This document shows, one piece after another, positions 1 to 64,000 of a DNA stretch of 64,000 bases (positions within the stretch are counted from its first letter, which is position 1; every line of letters begins with the position of its first letter). The stretch spans positions 589 through 64,588 of IMG/VR virus record IMGVR_UViG_3300047160_021165. One strand, written 5' to 3'. A program made the position numbers and the translations under genes. The notes under the pieces are model-generated. The model was not told where the DNA came from, searched no databases, and saw only the letters and a program-made list of their open reading frames with translations. The DNA comes from a virus.

Positions 1-995
1 GCATGAGTACCGTTGAAAGAAGTGATTACAGTATCACTACCGCCGCTTCTGATTCCAACCCCAATAGTAGTTCCGTTTAGAACGAAATAAACTCCGTCAC
101 TAGAGTCGTAAGCACCCCAACGACGTATGTTGTTGGCTACTCCGGTATCTCCCAATCTCGTAGAACCAACAAAAGCATTAACTGTTCCGGTTAAGAACCT
201 ACCCCTTAATAAAGAGCCCAGAAAAGCCGAAGAGTTAGCTGTAGTTCCAGTGGATAAAGTGTTTTGTCCGGAAGCTACCACCGAGGTTCCACTACCAGTT
301 AAAGTTGTGGACCACATATTAGTATCTAAGAGGGAACCGGTTTGTTCATTTCCGATTAATAAAGTAGCCGAAGTGACCCTAAGTTCATTTCTAGAATCAA
401 TGTTGGCGTATTGATATGTTTGGGGGTCAGCCAAAATCAAGCTACTGCCTACGGTTCCAGATATTTCGGAAGCACGCATAATGGCATTAGCAGTACCACT
501 GGTATAGGAAGTAACAACTACTCTGGCGTTGGATGCTCCACCAGAACACAATACGGCCAAAACTTGCACTGTGTTAGCAGAAGCGAAGGTTATAGTAGAA
601 GTGACGGTTGAACTGGTAACGTTGAAGAAAGAACAGTTAGTCCAAGTAGTTCCGCCATCGATGGAACATTGAGGGGTGATTGTTCCGACTAAAGTACCAG
701 CTGCTAGTTGAAACCCTACGGAGGTCATACCGGCTAGGGATATCGATATAGTAGCGTTTAGCGCGCCCAAGGCAGTACTAGCGGTAGTAGTATCGGGGGT
801 TTGTACGTGAAGTAATTGGTTTCCAGCGTTACCGTTGGAGGAAGAAGTGATTAAATTGCCAGAGCCATCCAAAGTACGAGCGGAAATAGAACCGTCCGTT
901 TGGACTTCCATGAAGTTGTCTTCAACTCCAGTAGAAGGATTAGCTCCGGCTATTTTAACCGGTAGAGATGATTGAACTTCTGTTAGGTCAGCCAT
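1..995 (-). CDS. Putative virion structural protein, partial (runs off window start; absent from ORF track)
   Basis: ATG at 995 with upstream AGGAGGGCT. Frame open to window edge: MADLTEVQSSLPVKIAGANP..., Ser/Thr/Gly-rich. N-terminus resembles the 1018-2121 protein (MAD..SSLPV). Confidence 0.7.
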   Translation of the reverse strand, partial: MADLTEVQSSLPVKIAGANPSTGVEDNFMEVQTDGSISARTLDGSGNLITSSSNGNAGNQLLHVQTPDTTTASTALGALNATISISLAGMTSVGFQLAAGTLVGTITPQCSIDGGTTWTNCSFFNVTSSTVTSTITFASANTVQVLAVLCSGGASNARVVVTSYTSGTANAIMRASEISGTVGSSLILADPQTYQYANIDSRNELRVTSATLLIGNEQTGSLLDTNMWSTTLTGSGTSVVASGQNTLSTGTTANSSAFLGSLLRGRFLTGTVNAFVGSTRLGDTGVANNIRRWGAYDSSDGVYFVLNGTTIGVGIRSGGSDTVITSFNGTH

Positions 996-44645: not shown

Positions 44646-45629
44646 TTAGTGAATTACCAGCTCATTGATAACCATTAACTCAAATCCCTTATTATCTCCA
44701 GGACCTGCAGTGTTTATACAGGGATTAGTATCTCCGGATCCATAAGTGGTTTCTGGAAGCCAAATGGAACAGTAGTTGGAGTTATTTGGTAAGTGATCTT
44801 GTGGATACCATTGAGTATTATGGTTTAATTCATCCATAGCTTCTTGGAAGTTCCCATCAGTATATTTGTGGTAAGCTGCTGAAAACAAAGGATTACCATG
44901 ATTCGAATTATAAATGGTAGTCAACACGTTTAATTCATCTTGGCTTATATAACCTCTTATATCCCCTTCTAGGAGGATATGCCATACGGTTAAATGACTT
45001 ATATATCCGGGGGTAGTATCCCAGCTAACTGGAAGTAAAGTCATGGCCTCCATATCAGGAACGCTACCCCCCATTCTCTGAATCATTAAAGCTAGTTCAG
45101 ACATTTCTGTGGAACTCAAAAGTAATTCTCCTGGAGTTCCAGTTCCCGTCATCAGCCAGTTATTGTTATACCAAGTATTATATATAGAAATCGCTAACTT
45201 GAGATCCTGGTGTTTCCAAATAAACCAATATAATCCCAGGATTTGATCTCTAGAAATCGTGGAACGACTATTACCCCATTGAGGTCCACAATCATGATTG
45301 GGCCTGCGGAACCATTGACCATTAGATTCAGCAGTTTGGATATTCACGTTAACTGCTGGATCTGCAGCACTGACTAAACCGGTCCAAAGCAGGGAGTCAC
45401 AAGTATCCGTAAATATAAACCCATTCTCGTCCATTTCTCCAGGAAGAGCTTGCTTATACAAGTCTGAGGTAGCCTGGAGATTTCCATAAGCCTCAATACT
45501 AACATGAGTAGCCACTTTAGCGTAAACTTTCTTAATTAAATCAACAACATAGTCTTGTCCACATCCTACGCCCTGAGTCAAGATTCCCAATAACAATAAA
45601 TATTTAATGATTTTAGATTTACTGAACAT
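44646..45629 (-). CDS. Putative lipoprotein of unknown function (327 aa)
   Basis: Lipobox-like TQGVG-C; GGAGG SD; helical body rich in W/Y. Confidence 0.6.
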   Translation of the reverse strand: MFSKSKIIKYLLLLGILTQGVGCGQDYVVDLIKKVYAKVATHVSIEAYGNLQATSDLYKQALPGEMDENGFIFTDTCDSLLWTGLVSAADPAVNVNIQTAESNGQWFRRPNHDCGPQWGNSRSTISRDQILGLYWFIWKHQDLKLAISIYNTWYNNNWLMTGTGTPGELLLSSTEMSELALMIQRMGGSVPDMEAMTLLPVSWDTTPGYISHLTVWHILLEGDIRGYISQDELNVLTTIYNSNHGNPLFSAAYHKYTDGNFQEAMDELNHNTQWYPQDHLPNNSNYCSIWLPETTYGSGDTNPCINTAGPGDNKGFELMVINELVIH

Positions 45630-45729: not shown

Positions 45730-47640
45730 TTAGGTGTTTGTTCTATAGGTCATAGTACATTGAACCTGACCACTAGCATTCAACTGAGCTTGTGTCAAAC
45801 TTGAAGGGCTACCGCCAGGAGTTATTACCGTAAATCCGGCGTTGGAAGCGTTACCGCCACCACCCACAGTTACCACGTTACCGGAACTTACGTTAAATGC
45901 GGAGTTGAAGTTGAATGATCCAGAAAACCTATAGTTAGTATCATTCAGGGAGTTTACAGGAATAGTAATACCGATGTTACCAGTACCAGTGAAAGAGGAG
46001 TAAGATACGAAAGCGGTTATATGTATTAAAGATCCTATTTTTACATAATACCCAGCTTGGGTAGTGTATGTGCCTGTAACACCTGTCAATGCTGGGGTAT
46101 AAGTACCCTCTTTATAGTCATCTAAGGTGTTTACGTTAGATGAAGCATTTTGAGAGGATGGGAAGTTCAATTGTCCAGTTATCAGACTCACTACTCCAGC
46201 AGAGTCTACTCTTAAGCGTTCAGCTGGGGTACCTGCAGAACCGGATCCAGCTGTGTAAATACTAAGTCTTCCTTGGAGGTTACCAGATGTAGGAGCAGCA
46301 TCCGCAAAACCCCTGATCCAAGCAGCAGATTGCATGAAAGTACCGTCAGCTCCTTGGAAGTTTAAGGTTCCAAGTTCATCTCCAGATTGAACCGCAGTGA
46401 CAGATCCCGCTGTAGTACCTCTACTTTTACCTAGCAAAATATTCAAACTAAAGTTATCAGCGGAGTTATGGGCTAAACCTATATGGAAGCTTCCCCAAGC
46501 ACTACCTGAACCCAAAGATTCCAATTGAAGCGCAGGGTTAATGGTAGATAAGCCAGACCAGCTAGTTCTAGTGGCCGTTGTGCCCCCTATTAAGAAGTTA
46601 CCTAAGTTGGTTAATCTCATTCTTTCAGAAGCAGAAGTCGATCCGCTGGGGGTAGTAGAGAAGGTTAGGGCGGTTGGCATACTGGAACTGCTGGGAGATA
46701 TTCCATCAATCTGAGCAAGTATGGAGGCACCTGTAGCGAAGACAGAACCGGTGTTACCTGCAAAACGAATGGCACCCAAAATATCAGTACTGCTCACCAG
46801 AGTATTGGTGCCTATGGTATTGGATGATGATTTACCGAAAACTATCAGAGGAAATGCAGCAGTAGCAGATGTACTGTAAGATAAAAAGTTGGTTGTAGGG
46901 GACGTTCCGTTATTGTTTATATTCAATTGAGCCGTAGAACCGGTTAGGCTAGGAGTATTGACCCAAGCCATAGCACTTGAACTAGAGGAGTTCAACATAT
47001 AACCAGTAGCTGTTGGGTTCGGTAATCTGGTAGGAGCCCCAGAAACACCACCATAAATCATGTCCCCAGCAGTAGTCATAGGGTTGGTCAAAACGTTATC
47101 TGAGGGGTTGGAGTACTGAAATATCGAAGCTCCGGTAAGGTTTTGTATAGTACCACCAACGTTATTTAGCAGTACATACCCCACGTTAAGGGCTCCAGAA
47201 GACATCGGAGGTATGGTGGCGTTGGCTGCAGTATTTCCTTGAACACCAGTAGTAAGTACGATTTGGGCGCTTGTGTTGATGGCTATACCAACTTTAAGGA
47301 AGTCCCCAGAAGTAATGGTAATAGTGATGTTGGACCCGCTGGAAACAGTAGTAGAACCCCCACTAGAGCTTGGGAAAATTACCGATCCAGAAGTGAAACC
47401 GATATCACTTCCTTGGATTGGAATTGGAACTGAACTGATAGAAGTTGAAGGGTTAGAAACCGTCCTAGAACCTAAGTCTACTTTCAATAAGTTTATTGAA
47501 TCCACAGACATAGCTACTGGAGGGGTGATTGCAGAATCTAGAGCAGTAAGGATAGTATCCAATTGGGATCCTGCTGCTCCAGTTGTTCTGGTCAGAGTAT
47601 TTCTATCTACTGCCTGACGTACATCTAGTTTAGTTGCCAT
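45730..47640 (-). CDS. Tail fibre / receptor-binding protein
   Basis: NPMTTAGDMIYGG motif, two ERMRL/ERLRV-ending repeat modules and C-terminal LDDYKEGTYTP module. Confidence 0.75.
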   Translation of the reverse strand: MATKLDVRQAVDRNTLTRTTGAAGSQLDTILTALDSAITPPVAMSVDSINLLKVDLGSRTVSNPSTSISSVPIPIQGSDIGFTSGSVIFPSSSGGSTTVSSGSNITITITSGDFLKVGIAINTSAQIVLTTGVQGNTAANATIPPMSSGALNVGYVLLNNVGGTIQNLTGASIFQYSNPSDNVLTNPMTTAGDMIYGGVSGAPTRLPNPTATGYMLNSSSSSAMAWVNTPSLTGSTAQLNINNNGTSPTTNFLSYSTSATAAFPLIVFGKSSSNTIGTNTLVSSTDILGAIRFAGNTGSVFATGASILAQIDGISPSSSSMPTALTFSTTPSGSTSASERMRLTNLGNFLIGGTTATRTSWSGLSTINPALQLESLGSGSAWGSFHIGLAHNSADNFSLNILLGKSRGTTAGSVTAVQSGDELGTLNFQGADGTFMQSAAWIRGFADAAPTSGNLQGRLSIYTAGSGSAGTPAERLRVDSAGVVSLITGQLNFPSSQNASSNVNTLDDYKEGTYTPALTGVTGTYTTQAGYYVKIGSLIHITAFVSYSSFTGTGNIGITIPVNSLNDTNYRFSGSFNFNSAFNVSSGNVVTVGGGGNASNAGFTVITPGGSPSSLTQAQLNASGQVQCTMTYRTNT

Positions 47641-51690: not shown

Positions 51691-54273
51691 TTATACGTAA
51701 ATAAATTCGAACAAGTCCGTAGAAACTGCCGCAACCTGGAGAGTTATAGTATTGGTGCTTGCTTGTTGATACTGGCTAGTTATGTCCCCGATAACCGTCG
51801 AATTTACCATCAATACACCGTTCCTGAATACTAGGAGGTGGTTATCCCCCAGAGTATAGGTATATGTAGGAATTGTAACAGTTGTTCCGGTGATGCCAGT
51901 AGTAGCTATACGCCAAGCCGGCACAGTTCCTGCGATATATATTTCGAAGACGTCACTAGTCTGAGCCGCAAGTGCCAATGTCACAGAAGTGGTAGTACTT
52001 TCAGTATATTTCAAATCTGCTGGAGCTGAACCATTTGTGCTTAAGAGAACGCCGTTTCTGTAGATTTGTAAAGTACCGTTACCAATAGTATAAGTTGGGA
52101 TAGTTAAAGTTGTACCAATTTGGCCAGTCATATATACTATGCTTGGGTTTGGGGTGGTCCAGTTCACGAATTGGAAAACTTCACTAGTATTAGCTGCTTG
52201 GGACAAAGTAATTGAATTAGCAGTAGCTTCTTGATATTGATCGATCGCACTACCAACGGAGAGACTATTTACAGAAGCCAAACCATTCCTGTAAACTGCC
52301 AAACGCCCTGTGGCCATGTTATATAGGTGGCCTACTGGAATATCAGTTCCGTTTTGGCCGGTTATGTAGTTTACAAACCAAGGCTGATTATTAGCGGCTG
52401 TACCAAAGATTTGTGGGTTAAACAATCTGAATTCCAGCAAATCCCCTACTACAAGTGTTTGTAATATTTGGATTTGACTGGATAAAGTTCCAGAAGTTCC
52501 TACCTCAGTATAGTCTGCACCTAATCGTAAAGCTTGACCGTTCAAAATTACGAGTAAACATCCTGAATTTACTAGATATTGTTTCTGAACACTAGCATTT
52601 CGACTATCCAAGGGGATCGTGATGTTAGTACTGCTGGTGATCGGTCCGTGAAGGTTATTACCGCTGGTAGACCCAGAAATAATCGTGTAAGCTTCATCGT
52701 AAGAAGTTAACAATCCAGAAACAATGTCATTAATGTTAGCAGCATTGATGGAAATTGCTTGCGTCAATGAATCGTTGTTGGTGAACTGGTTAGACAAAGA
52801 AACACTAGGAGTCGTCGTGTAGGGGGGATTGGTGGAAGTCTCGCTCGGACTACCAATAAAAGCCAATAATTGTCGAGATATAGGATTGCCGATTGGGGAA
52901 GTTTCACCACTAGAAAGATCTCCAATACCAGTTACGGTCAGGATGCTTCCTTCTCGGTATGCCAGGATATAATTACTATCGGTTGGGACAAAGGAAGCTC
53001 TTGGAACTACTTGGTAATTTGTTACCCCAGAACCAGACTCAGAAAAAGTACGATCAGAACCAGCCGCAGGCAATTGTACAAATAGTACGGAACCGTCGGC
53101 TATCCCTAGTGGAGCAGATCCGCCAGTACCGTCTTGACGGGTCATATAGATGTTGGAGCCTAAACCAGGAACCCTAACAGCTCCTATAACATCTGCCAAA
53201 GTTTGGCCTGTAGTCTTATTATCGGTAATATATAGGGATGTTCCATCCCACATATATTTAGCACCAGAAGATATTGGAGTGGTTATAGTATTTACTAAGT
53301 TTAAAAGGCTCAAAACGGAAACTACTGGTCCAGTTTGGTACCAATAAGGAGTTCCTTTTAGTCCTTTAATTTCAGTCATTAAGGCTGAGAACATGGATTG
53401 ATATGTTGTGATATCTTTGTCTGCACCACTAAAAGCTTCATAATATGTGAAGAGAGCGGCGCTAGCGTTAGATGTAGCGCCTAAAACAACATCCCCAGGA
53501 AGGAAATCCGGGTTGCTAAAGTTGTATACGGTGATATTGTTGGTTCCGCCAGTTTGAACTATGGCTGTGGCCCCGGAAGTGAAAGAGACTGTTTCTCCGG
53601 CCAGGAAAGTTCCAGAGGCTATACCAGTAAATGTAAGAGTTACAGCGGGTTCTATTCTCGTATTCCAAGCAAAGCTACCAGTAGAATCATCTGGGGAGCC
53701 CAAGCGGAACAAAAGATTTCTTTGATCTTGTATCCCCACGATAACATTGGAGTTATTCAGATCGATGATGGCTAGAGGAATTAAAGCTGTATTTCCACCA
53801 TCAAAACCGGATTGGCTAACAACTGCTTTGGTGAATAATTCGGTAACTGTGTTTACTGATTGGGAAAATTCAGACCCAGCCCCAGAATTGGCTGTAGGAT
53901 CCCAGAATGCCCTTTGTAAAGGGGTTCCGTTTTGGGCATAGATTTCTAGGGATACGTAGTTACGCCCCGGTTGTAGGCCGTTATTGCCAACAGGAATGGC
54001 TAGGGGGCTAGCACCTACTGGAGCTGCCCACCAGGAAAAGTCACTCGGACTATTGCCATTGATTAGAACTGAATTGGTTAGGATAATAGAAGCGCTGGTC
54101 TGACCTATGGTACTTTGGGGAATTACGAAACCGGCCAATATATAAGACGTAGGAGCTATAAAGCCTTTAGTATAGTATTGAGAATCGGACCTAAGTGCCG
54201 ATAATGCAAGGTTAAAATCTTCAAGATCATAACGTTCTTGTGGGAAAAGAAGCGGTCTGGTTAATATAGACAA
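51691..54273 (-). CDS. Baseplate/tail fibre-proximal structural protein (860 aa)
   Basis: Four xxNG..DY/QY..T.TL...D.FEF repeats at the C-terminus; follows the baseplate genes. Confidence 0.7.
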   Translation of the reverse strand: MSILTRPLLFPQERYDLEDFNLALSALRSDSQYYTKGFIAPTSYILAGFVIPQSTIGQTSASIILTNSVLINGNSPSDFSWWAAPVGASPLAIPVGNNGLQPGRNYVSLEIYAQNGTPLQRAFWDPTANSGAGSEFSQSVNTVTELFTKAVVSQSGFDGGNTALIPLAIIDLNNSNVIVGIQDQRNLLFRLGSPDDSTGSFAWNTRIEPAVTLTFTGIASGTFLAGETVSFTSGATAIVQTGGTNNITVYNFSNPDFLPGDVVLGATSNASAALFTYYEAFSGADKDITTYQSMFSALMTEIKGLKGTPYWYQTGPVVSVLSLLNLVNTITTPISSGAKYMWDGTSLYITDNKTTGQTLADVIGAVRVPGLGSNIYMTRQDGTGGSAPLGIADGSVLFVQLPAAGSDRTFSESGSGVTNYQVVPRASFVPTDSNYILAYREGSILTVTGIGDLSSGETSPIGNPISRQLLAFIGSPSETSTNPPYTTTPSVSLSNQFTNNDSLTQAISINAANINDIVSGLLTSYDEAYTIISGSTSGNNLHGPITSSTNITIPLDSRNASVQKQYLVNSGCLLVILNGQALRLGADYTEVGTSGTLSSQIQILQTLVVGDLLEFRLFNPQIFGTAANNQPWFVNYITGQNGTDIPVGHLYNMATGRLAVYRNGLASVNSLSVGSAIDQYQEATANSITLSQAANTSEVFQFVNWTTPNPSIVYMTGQIGTTLTIPTYTIGNGTLQIYRNGVLLSTNGSAPADLKYTESTTTSVTLALAAQTSDVFEIYIAGTVPAWRIATTGITGTTVTIPTYTYTLGDNHLLVFRNGVLMVNSTVIGDITSQYQQASTNTITLQVAAVSTDLFEFIYV

Positions 54274-54302
54274 GGCAGAATCTCCTGATATTAATCTGTT
54301 AA

Positions 54303-54311
54303 ATTATATCA
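54303..54311 (-). promoter_or_regulatory. Extended -10 promoter TGATATAAT
   Basis: 2 nt after the stop of 54314-55615, facing the fibre operon. Confidence 0.65.
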
Positions 54312-54313
54312 TT

Positions 54314-55615
54314 CTAGTCGTTATAGGGGTTGTCGACCTCTGGTATATATGTGTATTCTGGTAATAAAACTAAGAAATTAACTATAATACCGGCAGCAGC
54401 CAATGAGCTCAAAATTCCTTGAACTATAGCTCTAGAATCTGCAGGGGAAGTCAGATATATAGCCAAATCGCTTCCGTTAATTCTAGGGGCATATGGAGTG
54501 TTCTGGCCGGGTGCCAGTAAGTTTACCGAAGCCCCAGAAAGATGGTTGTGTTGGAATATATGCCCCGGGTCGATCAACAAGGTATTCATGTTGGGTACCG
54601 AGAAATACTTTACAGGGTATTCCTGGGAATCTGTGCCAAAATCAAATATAAGGCTCCCAGAAGTAGGGAAGGCTGAAGAATCAGATACAGTTATCTCGCT
54701 CATTACGGATCCTTCAGTAATAGGTGCCGTAAGGGAGGTTGAAGTTTTAGTGAGTACAAAGGGGTTAGAAGTTCTGGAATAAAAGAAAGATCCCTGCCAT
54801 ATTCCATCTGCAGGAGGTACCGGAGATGCCAAAGTGGCGTCGGTGTGGAAATGATGAGATCCAAGCAATGTACGCCTTAAGGTAGGTACAACTGCTGGTA
54901 ATTCTATGATTATTTCCCCAGCATTAACTTGGTATAAAACAGTTCTCTGAGCTAAATCGGCTACTATAAATTTATAGTTTAAAGTTAATCCTAATTTATC
55001 GAAACCGGCTAAAAAAGTTATAGATCCTCTAGGCCCAGGAGTATCTGTTCTGAGGTTGATGCTGATAGTATTGGTGGAAGTATTTAATATCGAACTAGCT
55101 GTAACCCCAGTAAATCGTTTAAGAATATTCAATATTTCTTGAGCAGTAGCCGCTCCCTGAAGCTGTATATCACCAGTCAGAACGTTAACGGTTTGAATAT
55201 CCCCGTTATCTACGATTAACTGGAATACATCTCCATTACTTACATTAAACGGTTCAGCTAAGCTACCAGTTTGATTAGCTCTTGAGAAAGTAGGACCCCA
55301 AAACACATCCATCGTATTGTAGAAGCTTTGAACCACTTGTCTTTGCTTGAAGGATAAGTTGGGGATAAGTTGTTGAAAATCTCCATCGAGTAGACCTAAA
55401 GCGGAAGGTCTGGATACTCCCACGTTGGATGCAACTCTATCCAGATAAGTCCCCCCAGCTGTTTTTACGAACAATTGAGCTTTAGTGTTATTTAGCTGGG
55501 TAATGATAGTATCATCTTCGCTAGCCCAAGCAGTGAGCAAAGCCAGTAACATGGGGTTAGTGCTGGCTTTTAACTCTGGGGGCATGAAATTTAAATATCT
55601 ATCTAATTTAGTCAT
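54314..55615 (-). CDS. Baseplate wedge protein (gpI-like position)
   Basis: YLDRVASNVGVSRP N-terminus and AAGI C-terminus; directly after baseplate J. Confidence 0.6.
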   Translation of the reverse strand: MTKLDRYLNFMPPELKASTNPMLLALLTAWASEDDTIITQLNNTKAQLFVKTAGGTYLDRVASNVGVSRPSALGLLDGDFQQLIPNLSFKQRQVVQSFYNTMDVFWGPTFSRANQTGSLAEPFNVSNGDVFQLIVDNGDIQTVNVLTGDIQLQGAATAQEILNILKRFTGVTASSILNTSTNTISINLRTDTPGPRGSITFLAGFDKLGLTLNYKFIVADLAQRTVLYQVNAGEIIIELPAVVPTLRRTLLGSHHFHTDATLASPVPPADGIWQGSFFYSRTSNPFVLTKTSTSLTAPITEGSVMSEITVSDSSAFPTSGSLIFDFGTDSQEYPVKYFSVPNMNTLLIDPGHIFQHNHLSGASVNLLAPGQNTPYAPRINGSDLAIYLTSPADSRAIVQGILSSLAAAGIIVNFLVLLPEYTYIPEVDNPYND

Positions 55616-55617
55616 GA

Positions 55618-58600
55618 TTAGCTCAATACGTTGAGGGTTATCAACGAGGCCTTAGTACGGGCCAATTCGATATCGGAAACTACTACGTTAGCGCTTGGGG
55701 TAGTGATTTGTACGTCAGTAATACCCTGAATCCCCATGATATCTTCGATTATGGCAGCCAATACTATTTCTTTACCGATTCCCAAGCTGTTAACATAAGC
55801 GATAACAGCCGTCTGAATTTGGTTAGTAACGTTGTTTAAGGCAATACCAGGAGCCAAGCCTACATTGATTACAAATTCAGCTTCCAGAACTAATGGAGGT
55901 AGAATCTCGAATTTAACTCCGGCAGCTCCAACTCCAGGATACGTAGTTAAATTGGTTTCGTCCCCATAGATAGTACTATGAACAGTTTTAATTAGTCCGG
56001 TATAGTATGAGTAAGCTTGGAGCCCGTTAATCAAAGTATTGGAAAACTCCAGCAAATTATTGGCTTTACCACCAGTAACTTGAACATAACCATCAGATCC
56101 GTTTTGGAGAGAGGCTATTTGGATCCTAGAATCGTTTTCAGCCAAAACTACTTCAGCATAAGAAGCCAAGGACGTGATTTGGTTGTTATTAAAGTAAGAA
56201 ACCACGTTCTCTTTAGTTCCTGGAATCACTACGAAAGTATCAGCCGGGCTAGGAGTATGAGTTACTGGGTTAGCTAAAGTTATAGCACCACTTACATTAT
56301 TCCAATCGCTTATTTGTCTTCTTTGGCCTACTAAACCGCTACCACTAGCCGTAGAGGCTTCGATAACACCATTTGCATTAGTTACCTTAACCCAGAAAGT
56401 AAACGGTATCCAAGAAGTACCATTATATTGATATGTTGCTGATAACGCAGTAATGATGACGGTATCGTTAGTAGATGGTATTTCATATGTCCAGGAAGAT
56501 CCAGTCCATTGAGCTATTTCATTAGCTTTACCACCCCATACGTTGGCAGTCCAAGTATTAGTGTTGAGTGAGTATTGGTACAAAGAGGCTACATCCAATA
56601 CATCTCTTACTTCTTCATCTTGGGAATGGGTAAATACCCAAATAGAGCCATTCCATGTAGCTACTTCTCCTGCTTTACCGCCCCAATCGTTCTCAATCCA
56701 AGTTCCGCTACCACCATCAAATTGGTAAAAATGCATGGAATGCTCATCATATACGACATCTCCAGCACTAGGGGTAATGAATAACCAGCCAGGAGTTCCA
56801 ATCCCGTTATAGTAAGCTATTTGGTTGTTGTGGCCAGTCCAAGCGCCTACACCGGAACCATTTACTATATATCGGTATCCATTGATTTCGGATACTCCAG
56901 GGCTGCTAGGATCGGTGTACAAGCCTTTGACATCTGGTTGGGTTACGCTGTTAGCTGCTGCAGCTACGATCCAGGCTTGACCTACAGATGGGGTTAAAGC
57001 ACTAGGATTCGATACACTTGCGCTTTGGATATTAACGCCATTGACCACAGTATTAGCTGCCACAGCGATTAAATGTCTATCACCAGTTGTAGGAGTTAAA
57101 GCGCTGGGATTAGAGACGGTATTATCGATTACTGGACTATGAACAGTATTTATGCTAGTAATTCCAGTGACTAGGAAGTTACCGTCGTTGTTCAAGCTAT
57201 TCATATTGCTGAAAGAAGCCTGATCTCCAACAGCAAAGTTCTGGAATCCGCTAGGGACACTTGTGAAGTTATATTGGAAAGTTGTTCCAGTTGGGTTAGT
57301 TACATTAGCCACAGCCCCAGATATTGTGTTAGCCCCAGTTTTAAAGACTAGCCAGAAGTTTTCTAGAATTTCATCTATAGAGAAAGTGGAAGTTAGACCA
57401 GAAGCCCCGAATAAAGTTGTACTAGATCCGGAAGTTACGGTTCCTGGATAACTCATAGTTATGGTGAATGTTTCCCCAGAGGTATTTTGATCCATAACTA
57501 CGACTAAGGTATCGCCCTCTATGAAGGAGTAAGGCCCAGAAGTACCAGATAAAATATAAGCAGTATGAGGCAAAATACTGTGGACAGTGGTATTTGTGGT
57601 GAAGCCAAAGATGGTATTGGATGTAGAACTAGAGCTTATGGAAATGCTTCCAGCTCCAGTATCGTAGGAATTAGTTCTTATTTCCAAGTAACTTCTGGAA
57701 TTTACGGTTCTAGTAACCGCTGTTCCGCCAACCAGAGTAGTATTAATGGTGGCAGCTACTTGAGCAGCTGATTGGTTCAAAGCAGCAGAGAAAGTGATAG
57801 TCTGAGGACTGCCCCCATCCACTGTAACTACTAGAGTTTCCCCACCAGAAAAACTATAGTTGCCTGGGTTAGCCGCGGTTAAGAAAGCTCTGGTCAAAGC
57901 CGTCCCAGCAGTTACTTTATCTCCAGAAACGAGAGGGTTATTTAGTTGGATAACTCCCAAATCAGCGTTCAGAATGTAGTCAGAATTGACACCAGTTACT
58001 GGTGTTAAGGAGAAGCCCAAAGTGGTAGCAGCTGTAGATGAATTTATTTGTATAGAGCTCAATGAAGAAAGGCCGGTGTTAGACACCAAGCGTACTTTAC
58101 CGTTAGCATCTGAAGCAGTGGCTCCTGCTAATTGGGCGTTGATAACAGCGGCCACTTGGGTAGCTGTAGCGGAGGCTGGAGTAGGGAAGTCTGCAGCATG
58201 GAAAGTAATCGTTTGTTGGTTGGCAGATTTACCGTCTACAACCACCAACAGTGTTTGTGTCGAGGAGAAGTTGTAAGGCTCGATATTTCCGGAATCTAGA
58301 AGAGCTGTTTCCCCATCCTTGGATAATAACTGGTCATTTTTATACAAATAAAACGTATATACGGTTTCAGTTGGGAATTCTAGAATGGAGTTAGCAGTTC
58401 CGCCGGTTACTGTTATTTGTTCGTTAGTATCGGCTTTGGCAGTAATAACTAAAGCAGTACCAACATCAGCTGTTCTAGCCTCTACCAAAGTGCTTACATT
58501 GTTGATGGCATTTACTACTTCGAGAGCCGTAGCAGCGCTAGGTATAGCGAAATCATTTGTGAAAAAGGTTATAGTTTCAGCCTGATTGCCCACATTGATG

Positions 58601-59784
58601 GTCAAAGTCAGGTCATTAGTTGACATATCATAAGGAGCAAAAGCTAAAGTTGCGACTTGAGCCTTAACTATTGGGAAAAACTCAGTTTGAAGCCTTTGTT
58701 CTCCGCCCAGAGCAGAAGCTATAATTACTTCTTCCCCTTGGTTGGCATAGCTTGGCTCAAAGCCAGTACCATCATCGATGTAGATTTTTACAGGCAATCC
58801 TACACTGTTAGGTTGGAGTATATTGGCTGATACAACACTTTTAGCGGAAGCTGGATCTGTCAAACCCAAGATAGCATTTTGAATACCGGAGGTTGTGGAC
58901 TGAGCCAAACCTTGGATAAAAGATCTGATTCTGTTTCGAAGTGAAGTATCGGTTTCTAGATCCTGACCATTAGAGAAAGCCAAATCGTTAGTAGCTCTTG
59001 CACCTGAGAATGGAGGATTTATGAAAGCGGAAGTACCTGTTATTGCACCTACTGCTATATTCCCAACAGTTCCGACCTGAGTACATTGGACGTCTACGTT
59101 ATCTACTTCAGACGTACCCGCCAAAAGTACCGCATCTGCAGTGGTGGTAAAGGTAACTTGTTGGGAAATTCCCACTGCTGGAACCTGAACTATTGTTCCA
59201 GCTGGTATTAATATATCCGCATTTTGTTTTAAAATAACAAGCTCAGAAGCCGCGTGATCATGAGTTAGAGGAACATCTAGAGTTATTTTGTAGTAATTTG
59301 TGAAGTTTTGAGGGTTATTAACACCAGGAGTATATGTAACTTGTTCCTGATTAACGGTGCCACTACCAACAATTAGACTTTGTTGAGCACCAGATGTAGG
59401 GAATCCTACTCCGTTATTGATATAAATGACAGTGTCGCCAGCTATAGCAGATCTAAAACCAGTATAGAAAGAACTAGAAATCTCAACAAAAGAAGCGGCC
59501 TGTTGTATAGTAATACGGCCCGTGGCAGCTGTAGCTTGGTTTCTAGTCAAACCATATTCGAAAGCCCGGTTATCCAGATCAGTCCCTGTAGTAGTGTCCA
59601 GGTTGTAATTACGGACAATTTGGAGCATTTGGTAATATTGAGCAAAATCTTCCTGAGCTGCAGCTTGCAGTAAAGTCAGTAGGATAGAGCCTGGGTTTAA
59701 ATCGTTTAAACCAGTTTGAGCCAGAATGGTTCTGGCCATACTACCTACAATTTGTTGTTCGCTTTTCAGGGTTAGATTTGACAT
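55618..59784 (-). CDS. Baseplate J-like wedge protein, enlarged by insertions (1388 aa)
   Basis: ATGTDLD-like TTGTDLD, GTVGN, GQDLETDTSLRNRI and C-terminal IAYVNSLGIG..IQGITDVQI motifs. Confidence 0.85.
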   Translation of the reverse strand: MSNLTLKSEQQIVGSMARTILAQTGLNDLNPGSILLTLLQAAAQEDFAQYYQMLQIVRNYNLDTTTGTDLDNRAFEYGLTRNQATAATGRITIQQAASFVEISSSFYTGFRSAIAGDTVIYINNGVGFPTSGAQQSLIVGSGTVNQEQVTYTPGVNNPQNFTNYYKITLDVPLTHDHAASELVILKQNADILIPAGTIVQVPAVGISQQVTFTTTADAVLLAGTSEVDNVDVQCTQVGTVGNIAVGAITGTSAFINPPFSGARATNDLAFSNGQDLETDTSLRNRIRSFIQGLAQSTTSGIQNAILGLTDPASAKSVVSANILQPNSVGLPVKIYIDDGTGFEPSYANQGEEVIIASALGGEQRLQTEFFPIVKAQVATLAFAPYDMSTNDLTLTINVGNQAETITFFTNDFAIPSAATALEVVNAINNVSTLVEARTADVGTALVITAKADTNEQITVTGGTANSILEFPTETVYTFYLYKNDQLLSKDGETALLDSGNIEPYNFSSTQTLLVVVDGKSANQQTITFHAADFPTPASATATQVAAVINAQLAGATASDANGKVRLVSNTGLSSLSSIQINSSTAATTLGFSLTPVTGVNSDYILNADLGVIQLNNPLVSGDKVTAGTALTRAFLTAANPGNYSFSGGETLVVTVDGGSPQTITFSAALNQSAAQVAATINTTLVGGTAVTRTVNSRSYLEIRTNSYDTGAGSISISSSSTSNTIFGFTTNTTVHSILPHTAYILSGTSGPYSFIEGDTLVVVMDQNTSGETFTITMSYPGTVTSGSSTTLFGASGLTSTFSIDEILENFWLVFKTGANTISGAVANVTNPTGTTFQYNFTSVPSGFQNFAVGDQASFSNMNSLNNDGNFLVTGITSINTVHSPVIDNTVSNPSALTPTTGDRHLIAVAANTVVNGVNIQSASVSNPSALTPSVGQAWIVAAAANSVTQPDVKGLYTDPSSPGVSEINGYRYIVNGSGVGAWTGHNNQIAYYNGIGTPGWLFITPSAGDVVYDEHSMHFYQFDGGSGTWIENDWGGKAGEVATWNGSIWVFTHSQDEEVRDVLDVASLYQYSLNTNTWTANVWGGKANEIAQWTGSSWTYEIPSTNDTVIITALSATYQYNGTSWIPFTFWVKVTNANGVIEASTASGSGLVGQRRQISDWNNVSGAITLANPVTHTPSPADTFVVIPGTKENVVSYFNNNQITSLASYAEVVLAENDSRIQIASLQNGSDGYVQVTGGKANNLLEFSNTLINGLQAYSYYTGLIKTVHSTIYGDETNLTTYPGVGAAGVKFEILPPLVLEAEFVINVGLAPGIALNNVTNQIQTAVIAYVNSLGIGKEIVLAAIIEDIMGIQGITDVQITTPSANVVVSDIELARTKASLITLNVLS

Positions 59785-59788
59785 ATTA

Positions 59789-59818
59789 ATCTCACACTAT
59801 CTCACATAATCTCACACT
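59789..59818. repeat. 3 x 10-bp tandem repeat ATCTCACA(CT/TA)
   Basis: ATCTCACACT ATCTCACATA ATCTCACACT fills the intergenic gap. Confidence 0.85.
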
Positions 59819-62333
59819 ACACTGGGATGGTAATGGGGACTGGTTGTTGAATGTTATTAAAGAAAACTGAGAACGATAACGTAAGAGTTCCACCCTCTTG
59901 GACTATATTGATTTTGGTTACATCGTTGATCCTAGAATCTTGCAACAAAGAAGCCGTGATATCCGATCTCAAAGATGCTAAATCTGGCACTTTTTTACCA
60001 GGATTCAAACTAGATCCAATGGTAGGAAATTTCTTTAAGCTACCTTTACTATACAACAATTTCAGCACAATTGCCTGCGCAGCGTTGATATATCCCGCCG
60101 CTACATTGAGATCTCCGCTTGGTAGAAGATCTAAGTCCATGTTACTATTGAGTTTTAAGTCAACATCTAGACTTTTTTGTATATAAGGAAGGCTATTTGT
60201 ATAAGGGTTGTCTCTTGGCCCGTAAGAACTAGAAGCTGTAGGCGCAGTAGTATCAGCAGGAATCTTAATATTATCGCCAGGTTTCAGAACTCCATCCGTA
60301 GAGAATGTGGACGGGTCCAGAACAACCCAAGAACCATTGTCATATTGGAGATAGGTTTGATCCGCCAAAGAATACACGATCATTCCGGATTCTGGGAAAA
60401 TAAACTGCCAATTAGAAGCGTTGGATACTAACCCACCAAGGTATTTGGCAATATAATTACTCTTACCTGCAAAAGCCCCAGCAGGAGTGGGGGCGGCGGG
60501 GATTAAATAGGTATAACCTATGTTAATTACACGGATATCTGCGGAATTGCTATATTTCTCAGATTGGACGTTAAACGCAGGAGCTAGAGCATCTTGGAGA
60601 CTTATTATATATGGGGCTTTCAAGCCGTTTAAATCGGCAATTTCGGTCCATCTAGAGGTATCTCCGAGTTCCTTAAGAGCTATGTCCTCCAGAGTCATAT
60701 TGGCCGGCAATGGACCTTCTTTGATCCCCGTATTAGGATCCAATACACTGAAGATTCCCTGACCGATTGTATCAGCGCCGTTATTTGAGCCTGCAGTGGT
60801 ATAAATCTGAGAATTCGTATCAAAAAGGGTATCGCTGCTCACTAAACCATTAGCACTATTGATCAATTGACTCATCGCATAGAGCATTTCGAATTGATCA
60901 TCGCTGAACTGAGTTTGGCTGTTAGCTACAGAAGTTTGGGTGGTGTTGAAAATACTGTTGTAAGTAGGATCGGTTAGACCTACTCCGTTAGCTAATAAAT
61001 CATAAGTACTTTTAATTTGTTCTTTGATTACTTCAACTTCTGCTTTGGAAATAGTTGCTGCAGATTGTTGTAGGGATTGAATATCAGAAGATATACTAGC
61101 TGGAAGTTGTCCAGCTGAAATAGAGGTCATTAAGGGAGCTTCCGTATCCAAAAGCTGACCAATTAAATTACTCACGGCTTGTGGACTAATGCTTCCTGGA
61201 TTTTTCGCCGTGTTTATATAACTCAACCCCGTTTTAACAGGAGTGGCGTTTCTAGGAGATGTATTTGAGCTTTCAGAATTCCTAGTATTGGTGGCTGATT
61301 GCACCATACTATTACCGATGGTATTCAACAATGCGAAGGAATCTCTGTTGGAAAGCTTCTTGACTGTGGCAATAGTTAAATCACCCAAGTTTAGGGGGGC
61401 GAAAATAGAAGCTTTAGAGGCTAATTTCAAACGATTTATGGAGTCTGAAAGAGCTGATAAATCTCCAGTAATTTGCTTAGAAGCGTCTGTATTCAGTTTG
61501 AAGAGCAAATGAGTATTGTTTAGTTCGGTGGCGATATCGTTGATTTTATTGACTACCAGCTCGAACAATGGTTTGTCTATGGTTTTGGCGCCGATGACCC
61601 TGAATTGTATGTTGTAGTCATACAAAAGAGGTCTTTGGGCATTCCTGCGCATAGTAAATTTGCGAGGTTCTACATACAAGAATTCCCAATCCTTGTAGTT
61701 TTTCCACAACATACGAATGTCAGTGGTTCCAGCTTTGGATTTAGCTTCATGATAAGCTTTGATCCATTGGCGGAAATGTTGGAACACTTCGTAACCACTA
61801 CGATATTGTAGATCATCTGGATTGCCAAGGGATAGACCAGTATATTTGTCCACACCTAGAGTTCCACGATAAGGAGCTACGCCGGTTGTTCCGGCTATGA
61901 TCAAGGTTTTATATTTATTGCCGGAATGGTTAACAACTGTGCCGCCTTGAGTAGGATTGAAGGATACAGCGAATTCTTCATCCTGATTAATTTCTTGAGG
62001 AGTTATAGGTAGATCGAACTCTCCAAAAGAAGTATCCACTTTTCCAATATTGGCTAATGAGTTGAACGTGGAATAAATATTCTGAATAAATTGAGGAAAT
62101 TCACTAACTAAGGAAGATCCGGAGCCTACTGGTTCAACAGAAAGAGCATAAAGGCCTTGAGATGGAGTTTGATACCAATTTTGTCTTTGAAAATCATTAG
62201 TTATGGATTGATCTGGATAAGTAGGAAAATGGGGTTCTGGACTGATTAGACCGAAAGTAGATGCTAACCCCCTAGTTGCACTAGCGATATTATTTATTAA
62301 ATCGGCAGTATCGGCTATGGTGATCTTTGACAT
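59817..62333 (-). CDS. Multi-domain baseplate protein (tube-initiator-like N-terminus, LysM-like, gp25-like C-terminus)
   Basis: TLEDIALKELGDTSRWTEIADLN (LysM/gpX-like); DLKL..GDL..AQAI..L..KGSL..P.IG (gp25/gpW-like). Confidence 0.65.
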   Translation of the reverse strand: MSKITIADTADLINNIASATRGLASTFGLISPEPHFPTYPDQSITNDFQRQNWYQTPSQGLYALSVEPVGSGSSLVSEFPQFIQNIYSTFNSLANIGKVDTSFGEFDLPITPQEINQDEEFAVSFNPTQGGTVVNHSGNKYKTLIIAGTTGVAPYRGTLGVDKYTGLSLGNPDDLQYRSGYEVFQHFRQWIKAYHEAKSKAGTTDIRMLWKNYKDWEFLYVEPRKFTMRRNAQRPLLYDYNIQFRVIGAKTIDKPLFELVVNKINDIATELNNTHLLFKLNTDASKQITGDLSALSDSINRLKLASKASIFAPLNLGDLTIATVKKLSNRDSFALLNTIGNSMVQSATNTRNSESSNTSPRNATPVKTGLSYINTAKNPGSISPQAVSNLIGQLLDTEAPLMTSISAGQLPASISSDIQSLQQSAATISKAEVEVIKEQIKSTYDLLANGVGLTDPTYNSIFNTTQTSVANSQTQFSDDQFEMLYAMSQLINSANGLVSSDTLFDTNSQIYTTAGSNNGADTIGQGIFSVLDPNTGIKEGPLPANMTLEDIALKELGDTSRWTEIADLNGLKAPYIISLQDALAPAFNVQSEKYSNSADIRVINIGYTYLIPAAPTPAGAFAGKSNYIAKYLGGLVSNASNWQFIFPESGMIVYSLADQTYLQYDNGSWVVLDPSTFSTDGVLKPGDNIKIPADTTAPTASSSYGPRDNPYTNSLPYIQKSLDVDLKLNSNMDLDLLPSGDLNVAAGYINAAQAIVLKLLYSKGSLKKFPTIGSSLNPGKKVPDLASLRSDITASLLQDSRINDVTKINIVQEGGTLTLSFSVFFNNIQQPVPITIPV

Positions 62334-62378: not shown

Positions 62379-63005
62379 CTAAGCTATAGTGCCCCCGGCT
62401 CCAGTTCCGTTGGCGAGAGGACCCCCTCCTGGAGGGCAAGTACCCGTAATTGTTCCAGTTGCGTAGCTAACGGAGGCATTAGCCATTATGTAATTGCACA
62501 AAGCCGTATAGAAGCCTATAGCCATCGGTCCAGTAGCTCCTACGGCTGCTGCAGCCGCTGCACCGCTTAAACCCGTTATCATACCGCCTGTACCCGCTCC
62601 AGCAACCAGAGGACCCGGACTAGTGGGAGTGTTGGTACAATTCCCAACAATACTACCAGGTTGGAACACGACTAGACCGGTAGATATGTAAGAAATAATA
62701 CCTACATTTTCTTTCGAAATTCCTGGGGAAGTAGCAAAGGCTGGGAGGGTTTGCGCTAGCATTGGACCTGGGGTAACCACCATCACCCCACCAGTCCCAG
62801 CACCAGCCACCAGAGGCGCTCCAGACACGGTAGTACCCACGATAGTGTTTGGGGGGTTAGAAACCGTTCCAGCCTGCAGAGCAGCCACGATACCAGCTGC
62901 ATATGCAGTAGTCTGGTTGGGGCTGGATAGTGGCCCTCCCTGGCTATTTATATGGACGGGGAAGGTTTGAATCAGCATGTTTGCTAAATCATTGGAACTT
63001 AACAT
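62379..63005 (-). CDS. Gly-rich three-repeat protein, spike-tip candidate
   Basis: Three G.PL.(A/N)G.G.GG repeats; directly downstream of the spike gene. Confidence 0.55.
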   Translation of the reverse strand: MLSSNDLANMLIQTFPVHINSQGGPLSSPNQTTAYAAGIVAALQAGTVSNPPNTIVGTTVSGAPLVAGAGTGGVMVVTPGPMLAQTLPAFATSPGISKENVGIISYISTGLVVFQPGSIVGNCTNTPTSPGPLVAGAGTGGMITGLSGAAAAAAVGATGPMAIGFYTALCNYIMANASVSYATGTITGTCPPGGGPLANGTGAGGTIA

Positions 63006-63006
63006 A

Positions 63007-64000
63007 TTAGCCCCCAGTTATCAGTTGGATCTGGGTCAAAAGTTGAATGTATTGTGCCACGTTAGTTAATGGAGCACCAAATCCGGCCGCAGTGTCAGTG
63101 CTCAGGGTCTGAATTAGGGTTTGAAGAATTTGAAGAGCATCTCCACTAGCATTCCCCAGCTTTATGAACCCTGTAGCATCGAAACTTAGGTTAGCCCCAT
63201 TTAAACTCTTCAATGAAATGGCCCCATTACTTATGGATAGCGCATCTCCAGCTAAATCTTTCAGACTTACAGATCCATTGCTTAAATCCAAGGCATCTCC
63301 GCCCGTGTTTTTAAGAGATATAGCATTAGAGCCTATGGAAAAGGAATCCCCAGTAGCAGTAGCTAGCTTAAAGCCAGAACTTGTGCTCAAGGCAAGAGAA
63401 CTCCCACCAATTGTAGATACTTTGAACGTATCTGTAGGCCCGTCTATGCTCCAAGATGTTCCTATGGCAGTTGCTACAGATACAGTGTCTTTCAGGCCAT
63501 CTGCTGTTACAGTTAATCCTGGTAGGAAGCTGAGCTTTAGGTTGTATTCGTTGTTGAGGGTTACAGATACGGCTTCTTCTTGTCCAGGTAATGGGGCGAA
63601 TTGATTAACGAATGGAGCTAGAGGATTTTCCGGATTTGGGAAATATGGGACGTAAGCTCCGTTATCTTTTGTCCAGCTGAACTCCCCATTCTTATCTATA
63701 TCGGTAGCAATACCGTTGAATCTATGGGCATAAAGAGGCCCTTCTAGGGTACTAGCGTCTCTAGGAGCTTGTTGATGGTTGCCTAAACCCACGATTACGG
63801 GCATGTGGGGGTCGCCATTTAGGAATTGAATATAAACTACGTCTCCACCGAGAGTTGGAATAGATCTCAGAGAAGGATCGGCTGCAGCCACGATTTCGGT
63901 GATATCAGCGTTAGAAATACCTTGGGTTGCCTTAAGGGAGATTTCCTCATAGTTGTCAAAACCACCTAAAGTTCTCAGAACTCTGGCGTTATTGAAGATT
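63007..64000 (-). CDS. Baseplate central spike (gp5/gpV-like), partial (5' end beyond window)
   Basis: OB-fold PTLGGDVVYIQFLNGDPHMPVIVG followed by beta-helix-like S/L/D-G repeats; frame open to the window edge. Confidence 0.75.
   Translation of the reverse strand, partial: IFNNARVLRTLGGFDNYEEISLKATQGISNADITEIVAAADPSLRSIPTLGGDVVYIQFLNGDPHMPVIVGLGNHQQAPRDASTLEGPLYAHRFNGIATDIDKNGEFSWTKDNGAYVPYFPNPENPLAPFVNQFAPLPGQEEAVSVTLNNEYNLKLSFLPGLTVTADGLKDTVSVATAIGTSWSIDGPTDTFKVSTIGGSSLALSTSSGFKLATATGDSFSIGSNAISLKNTGGDALDLSNGSVSLKDLAGDALSISNGAISLKSLNGANLSFDATGFIKLGNASGDALQILQTLIQTLSTDTAAGFGAPLTNVAQYIQLLTQIQLITGG

Follow-up and report, generated by a model that had tools for sequence, protein, structure and literature searches.

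A predicted three-level nest of DUF2793 domains within a phage baseplate J-like wedge protein

Layout of the DUF2793 array

The window analysed here, a stretch of 64,000 nucleotides, corresponds to bases 589-64588 of one 108,914-bp viral contig (IMG/VR record IMGVR_UViG_3300047160_021165). It encodes a 1388-residue baseplate J/gp6-like wedge protein, P0001, that carries an array of segments related to DUF2793 (PF10983), a small β domain of about 72–87 residues. The array occupies residues 879-1128 (window 56401-57150) and runs in the order N1-N2-N3-C3-C2-C1, where N1 and C1 are the N- and C-halves of an outermost copy, N2 and C2 those of a middle copy, and N3 and C3 adjoin in an innermost copy (Table 1). 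On the C side, an inner copy is joined to the halves of its host copy by linkers of 1-4 residues, and the open reading frame (ORF) is uninterrupted across the array. A preliminary description of this DNA had proposed, from the letters and translations alone, that three DUF2793-like domains are nested inside one another in a baseplate J protein; all of the motifs that it quoted were located in P0001, internal to that protein. Residues 879-1128 are very probably a three-level nest of DUF2793 inside itself. The nested order, the family membership of the halves and the pattern of insertions and deletions among relatives are demonstrated at the sequence level, and the pairing of the halves is predicted from models.

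Table 1. Features of the wedge gene, the array and the surrounding genes (window coordinates)
Feature	Position	Strand	Residues and matches
P0001, 1388-residue baseplate J/gp6-like wedge protein	55618-59784	-	PF04865, E 9e-16; phrog_6 (baseplate wedge subunit), E 5e-33
Outgoing strand of host hairpin, GNFLVTGITS	57154-57183	-	868-877; immediately ahead of array
N1, N-half of outermost copy	57049-57135	-	884-912; motif 887-907
N2, N-half of middle copy	56947-57042	-	915-946; motif 921-941
Copy 3 (N3+C3), innermost contiguous DUF2793	56692-56940	-	949-1031; N3 955-976, C3 982-1031
C2, C-half of middle copy	56545-56688	-	1033-1080; motif 1034-1080
C1, C-half of outermost copy	56401-56541	-	1082-1128; motif 1083-1128
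Return strand of host hairpin, FWVKVTNANG	56368-56397	-	1130-1139; aligns with YWVEITNAVG after the 4-residue turn of 0-copy homologues
P0002, 838-residue baseplate gene product	59817-62333	-	PF23980, E 1e-5; phrog_975, E 5e-22; PF10934, weak
Single contiguous DUF2793 copy in P0002	60324-60521	-	605-670; Pfam E 8e-7, profile 20-87; own profile 14-72, 43 bits
Tail-fibre-like gene	45730-47640		downstream of P0001
Flanking ORFs without family	62379-63891	-	
Flanking ORF without family	44646-45629	-	
Flanking ORFs without family	51691-55615	-	

The PF10983 profile matches P0001 as a whole with 50.8 bits (cut-off 27). When the segments were scanned separately against the same profile, N3C3 matched with an E value (E) of 3e-10 (40.2 bits, profile positions 24-84), C1 with E 1.3e-4 (positions 43-86) and C2 with E 0.008 (positions 42-81); N1 and N2, being too short, gave no match on their own. 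An independent hidden Markov model (HMM) of 72 positions was built from 264 ordinary DUF2793 units in 144 proteins outside the P0001 family (the J family), collected by exhaustive search. It produced five matches in the region: N1 (hmm 3-25), N2 (hmm 8-25), N3C3 (hmm 4-71, 77 bits), C2 (hmm 26-71, 25 bits) and C1 (hmm 25-72, 38 bits). The ends of the N-halves and the starts of the C-halves coincide at hmm position 25/26. The independent profile thus bears out the assignment of the halves to DUF2793, with a complementary split at one position, and the innermost copy alone is contiguous, as had been proposed: N3C3 is a single match and each outer copy is divided into separate N and C matches. 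The chimeric sequences N1+C1 and N2+C2 could each be aligned from one end to the other with the independent HMM (53.8 and 38.6 bits), with scores that are additive and blind to pairing.

The half-profiles were also run against the 108,914-bp genome as a whole, represented by all of its 599 six-frame ORF pieces. With the N-half HMM, the three top-ranking segments were N1, N2 and N3 (10.2, 9.8 and 9.4 bits), followed by a piece at 6.0 bits, the P0002 copy at 4.7 bits and everything else at 3.3 bits or less. The C-half HMM selected only C3, C1, the P0002 copy and C2 (57, 44, 38 and 24 bits), all other pieces scoring at most 7 bits. The halves rank so high above all other ORF pieces that the pattern lies far beyond chance. 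Matches to the N-half profile over all of its 25 positions, with 17-23 bits, are given by the outer N-halves of the related proteins P0176 and P0177 (for example, LDKDLDTPPASPSVGDRYIVAETAN). BLAST of the whole of P0001 against itself returned no off-diagonal rows, and segment-by-segment comparison was used instead.

Predicted structure and pairing of the halves

Residues 865-1145 of P0001 were modelled with AlphaFold2 using 22 homologues. The model has a mean predicted local distance difference test score (pLDDT) of 91.2 and a predicted template modelling score of 0.80. Every N-half is modelled as turn-strand-turn and every C-half as the same five strands. Copy 3 (model residues 85-168/169) superposes on residues 34-110/111 of 8gtc with Z 8.6-8.7 and a root mean square deviation (rmsd) of 2.0-2.2 Å over 76-77 residues, and on residues 37-119 of 8rk3 with Z 5.7-5.8 and 28% identity. 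This fold match to solved DUF2793 domains concerns copy 3 only and was obtained from the predicted model. The solved relatives were found by fold comparison only, the sequence search having given none: phmmer with the 261-residue segment against PDB sequences returned nothing relevant (best match, a thioredoxin, E 1.1). Among the viral models of BFVD, none spans more than one copy, and the best query-normalised template modelling (TM) score was 0.28.

A wide structure search against 48,161 chains gave 50 aligned ranges, comprising two strong matches and 48 weak rows to small compact folds of 30-59 residues. These ranges are nested by copy throughout. Seventeen start in N1 (model residues 8-29), and all of them end in C1 (237 or 264-274); another 15 start in N2 (50-73) and all end in C2 (189-217); the remaining 18, which include both strong matches, start in N3/C3 and all end in C3 (139-169). 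Crossed ranges, such as 22..189 or 62..237, do not occur among the 50. The same FnI-type modules were matched to 95..140, 62..189 and 28..237, that is, in copies 3, 2 and 1, respectively, to strand 1 together with the hairpin that opens the matching C-half. Removal of C1 from the modelled segment (residues 865-1081) lowered the pLDDT across model residues 11-50 (N1) from 86/96/97/96 to 67/75/82/75 and changed the N1 strands, while N2, N3, C3 and C2 stayed at 89-97, with N2 and N3 not below 91. With a covariation score derived from 260 ordinary units, the N3-C3 pairing is recovered in 17-20 of 22 proteins.

The preliminary description had named an AlphaFold model with N1/C1, N2/C2 and N3/C3 paired as its check. 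The nesting of all 50 ranges by copy, the restriction of the truncation effect to N1 and the strand patterns shared by the halves agree with that expectation at the level of the model. These results favour the pairing of N1 with C1, N2 with C2 and N3 with C3 into three compact units, and the three split domains are predicted to lie in one rigid body. The “telescoping arm” shape suggested for the array is a plausible conjecture.

Distribution among relatives and in neighbouring genes

A search with the array region identified 23 proteins of 1373-1480 residues, namely P0001 itself and 22 relatives (41-62% identity); the order of the halves is the same in every one. In total, at least 27 full-length relatives that bear the array keep the order N1-N2-N3-C3-C2-C1, again at 41-62% identity. 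Single-sequence pattern scans of the genome-contig and viral-contig collections returned no relatives; alignment-based scans returned a single IMG/VR contig, and nothing among the genome contigs.

The N-terminal 400 residues of P0001 retrieved 318 relatives, and 89 of the 96 new relatives listed are without DUF2793 halves (about 1133-1148 residues, one of 1351 residues); two of these 89 give one weak N-half match each, of 7 bits. In three aligned relatives of about 1135 residues, the turn GSSP or a similar 4-residue turn joins the strands ...NNGSFLITAINS and YWVEITN.... The presence of a 4-residue turn in place of the array indicates that the whole nest is itself inserted in the turn of a hairpin. 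At the other extreme, three relatives (P0023, P0176 and P0177) have four copies, the additional one contiguous and placed precisely at the N3/C3 junction. The levels found in the J family are thus 0, 3 and 4, with no form of one or two levels seen. Of the homologues with 0, 1 or 2 nested copies that the preliminary description had named as a check, those with 0 copies were found in the family, and four-copy forms were found in addition. The statement that each copy lies in the same loop of the previous one is supported by the shared break at hmm 25/26 and by the position of the fourth copy in the innermost loop.

A separate insertion was observed in four relatives of 1476-1480 residues (P0014, P0017, P0019 and P0020), in which an unrelated insert of about 85 residues (..HGL..G.PV.F...G.LPTGL..G.TYYV..) lies in N2, between ANP and TP..GD; it has no Pfam match.

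N1 and N2 share 49% identity (family average) and are about 21% identical to N3; C1 and C2 share 41% identity and are 33-35% identical to C3. The identities in both halves suggest a sister relationship between copies 1 and 2. The highest score against ordinary units is that of copy 3, and the fourth copy of P0023 (TPP...GNRYIVGTSPTGVW) is even closer to ordinary DUF2793. The copies were most likely added from the outside to the inside, by one insertion after another into the innermost loop.

The upstream gene, which encodes P0002, also contains DUF2793. P0002 consists of a tube-initiator-like N-terminal part (PF23980), a LysM-like domain (residues ~547-692) and a gp25/sheath-initiator-like C-terminal end. 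The preliminary description had noted a further C-half-like segment in this gene (59817-62333); DUF2793 is indeed present there, as a complete contiguous copy rather than as a C-half alone. In an alignment, this copy interrupts the LysM-like domain, which is unbroken in homologues of about 700 residues. All 32 homologues of 822-871 residues have DUF2793 and all 10 of 692-728 residues are without it. On contigs of the same length, the long form of P0002 could be linked to 15 nest-bearing J proteins and the short form to a single J protein with 0 copies. The IMG/VR loci follow the same pattern: L002, with a 3-copy J protein, has the long form, and L003 and L004, with 0-copy J proteins, combine the short form with a complete lack of DUF2793. 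This co-occurrence of the nest and the DUF2793-bearing form of P0002 suggests that the two gains go together, and they may represent a single evolutionary event.

The other neighbours of P0001 and P0002 (294, 208, 433, 860 and 327 residues) had no family match in Pfam or PHROG at the thresholds used. Within P0001, the C-terminal residues 1301-1379 match the baseplate PHROGs 1608 and 4226. Residues 385-850 (window ~57235-58632, minus strand), ahead of the domain that hosts the nest, consist of four related tandem modules of about 100 residues, with pairwise BLAST E values between neighbours of 8e-7 to 7e-11. These modules have no Pfam match; phrog_15814 matches residues 491-599.

Outside the J family, 137 of the 146 proteins with DUF2793 show NC, NCNC or longer tandem NC arrays. 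Independent two-level nests were found in P0163 (residues 997-1134) and P0076 (residues 68-191), broken at hmm 21-25, in the same loop. Both proteins are unrelated to baseplate J, and P0163 has in addition two ordinary copies and a PPC domain. A different kind of repeat was seen in P0052 (932 residues), with about ten tandem copies of a 34-residue, S/T/G-rich unit (VSAPSGITGATGSFTVIAASGNAVVSGTSTLTGL) that phmmer aligns to N1-N2. This repeat was considered as an origin of N1 and N2 and rejected, as the canonical profile finds no DUF2793 half in it; its likeness to N1-N2 is probably compositional.

Alternative explanations

An alternative reading of the same segment is that it comprises two tandem arrays, three copies of a 34-residue repeat and then three of a 49-residue β-meander, in some other solenoid- or propeller-like fold, with no pairing of N- and C-halves and with a partial or convergent likeness to DUF2793. 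The failure of Pfam to detect N1 and N2 alone, their scores of only about 10 bits on the N-half HMM built from ordinary units, and the phmmer alignment of the P0052 repeat to N1-N2 without any C-half would all fit such arrays, as would Foldseek matches in the PDB to β-propeller and lectin repeats (tectonin, kelch and designed propellers) with E values of 1e-3 to 1e-2. The propeller matches were nevertheless rejected for an rmsd of 16-21 Å, TM scores of 0.08-0.14 and their repeat texture, and the canonical profile finds no N-half in P0052. Against tandem arrays there are also the junction of N- and C-halves at one profile position, the scores of 17-23 bits over all 25 positions for the outer N-halves of relatives, the confinement of all 50 structural ranges within matching N and C halves, and the fourth whole copy that three relatives carry at the very junction of N3 and C3. 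Two unpaired tandem arrays are accordingly considered very improbable. A chance or compositional likeness, or an artefact of assembly or annotation, has no point in its support and is given a negligible probability: the ORF is uninterrupted, at least 27 full-length relatives at 41-62% identity have the same order, and the half-profile controls, in which the halves outscore all remaining ORF pieces by a wide margin, refute it.

If the halves belong to DUF2793, they could still pair otherwise in the baseplate, either crosswise (N1-C2 and N2-C1) or by exchange between wedge subunits, which would make the array an interlocking device. The gp6-type wedge proteins of T4-type baseplates form dimers and rings, and split domains are prone to swapping. 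DUF2793 is homotrimeric in the R4C and JBD30 fibres (PMC10276861, PMC11445458). Several observations weigh against nested pairing within one chain, or limit its support. The covariation score does not tell nested pairing of copies 1 and 2 from crossed pairing (10-15 of 22 proteins). N1 still forms strands when C1 is removed, so that the fall in pLDDT can be taken only as a suggestion. The model was folded from a shallow alignment (23-24 sequences), and the N1/C1 and N2/C2 contacts were deduced from ranges, strand patterns and truncation, not read directly. The model is of a monomer, with which strand exchange between adjoining subunits is compatible. As one- and two-level intermediates are missing from the J family, the order of insertion is also something that we infer. 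What speaks for nested pairing over the crossed or swapped forms is the absence of any crossed alignment range (22..189 or 62..237) among the 50, the effect of C1 removal on N1 and not on N2, and C-side linkers of 1-4 residues that fit closure within one chain. Crossed or swapped pairing is on this evidence very improbable, and the three-level nest of DUF2793 is retained as the best explanation.

Known systems and proposed role

The DUF2793 fold is known as the knob domain (residues 36-117) of the tail fibre of phage R4C (8gtc; PMC10276861) and as the thigh domain (residues 1-118) of gp54, the receptor-binding protein of phage JBD30 (8rk3; PMC11445458), both homotrimeric; DUF2793 also occurs in Rcc00171 of RcGTA and in gp49 of DMS3. 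P0001 shares with the R4C and JBD30 proteins the sequence family, the fold of copy 3 and a place in the phage host-contact apparatus. The known domains are, however, contiguous and near the N-terminus of homotrimeric siphophage fibres, or are arranged in tandem as NC-NC (PMC10276861, PMC11445458, bioRxiv 10.1101/150227). In contrast, DUF2793 in P0001 is split, nested three deep and internal (residues 879-1128 of 1388) to the wedge protein of a putative contractile-tail-type module, and so departs from the usual N-terminal position in trimeric fibres or receptor-binding proteins of non-contractile tails. In the papers on DUF2793 that were consulted, no mention of nesting was found.

The wedge assignment of P0001 agrees with the Baseplate J, T4 gp6, P2 gpJ and Mu gp47 proteins in the presence of PF04865 and in the position of its gene after a gp25-like gene, P0002 carrying gp25-like and tube-initiator-like parts. 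Among named phages, the closest relative is found in Myxococcus phage Mx1, whose baseplate J-like protein is homologous to residues 7-659 (33% identity) and 1245-1364 (32.5% identity) of P0001. The Mx1 protein (1925 residues; L001, 5977-11754) and a 2075-residue IMG/VR relative (L005, 9929-16153) have other inserts in the middle and no DUF2793 halves. Since they share the N- and C-terminal parts alone with P0001, the middle of the family appears to be a swappable cassette. In Mx1, a gene for a kelch-repeat protein follows the baseplate J-like gene.

Recursive nesting of one domain is known from SI3 of the cyanobacterial RNA polymerase β′ subunit, in which insertion of the sandwich-barrel hybrid motif (SBHM) reaches up to six levels (PMC13114784). 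SI3 and the P0001 nest share the principle that a domain is both insert and host of its own kind (A1-B1-C-B2-A2); in both, the module juts out of a large host protein at a loop, and the number of levels is lower or zero in relatives. In P0001, the order of halves typical of SI3-like nesting is given by profile matches, the compact units are predicted by the model, and the uninterrupted host is seen in relatives. The host is unrelated and the fold apparently so, and no RNA polymerase or SBHM chain was among the structural matches listed. Unlike SI3, the P0001 nest forms a strictly linear series in which every host takes a single insert, at the same loop each time, and it is part of a virion structural protein. 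SI3 has experimental structures, whereas the P0001 nest rests on prediction. The relation claimed here is one of shared architecture only, not of membership. Neither DUF2793 with its fold nor the recursive nesting of a single domain is new, and domain insertion in general is common.

In the copy that encloses it, each inner copy would occupy the loop that leads from strand 1 (..GD.YIV) to the W.G....IA.W strand, and a further accessory domain of the wedge protein would host the whole nest in a hairpin turn. In a nested arrangement the chain ends up where it set out, so that a multi-domain protrusion can extend from a loop and leave the N- and C-terminal wedge core unmoved. The array is most likely a rigid, dispensable peripheral decoration of the baseplate that would display three or four knob domains for contact with the host surface or for docking of fibres, probably acting together with the DUF2793 inserted in the LysM-like domain of P0002. 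A broader proposal, tentative and on balance rather unlikely, is that DUF2793 is a self-hosting module, with two-, three- and four-deep nests in at least three lineages and further insertions in LysM and in a baseplate hairpin, and that in this phage clade the nest and the P0002 copy were gained together and form a new peripheral structure of the baseplate. Under this proposal, one option is a single-chain stand-in for a trimeric fibre knob, which would dock fibres or bind the host surface.

For annotation, profile tools detect the inner copy together with “partial” matches, so that nested copies are undercounted and the outer halves are easily mistaken for fragments. For protein evolution, P0001 appears to be a rare and clean natural case of repeated self-insertion at one loop, for which SI3 was the sole precedent found; the simple rule would be that nesting is a way for a loop to grow a protrusion. 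For the biology of these phages, the array would mark a dispensable, modular decoration of the wedge protein that may affect adsorption or the attachment of fibres.

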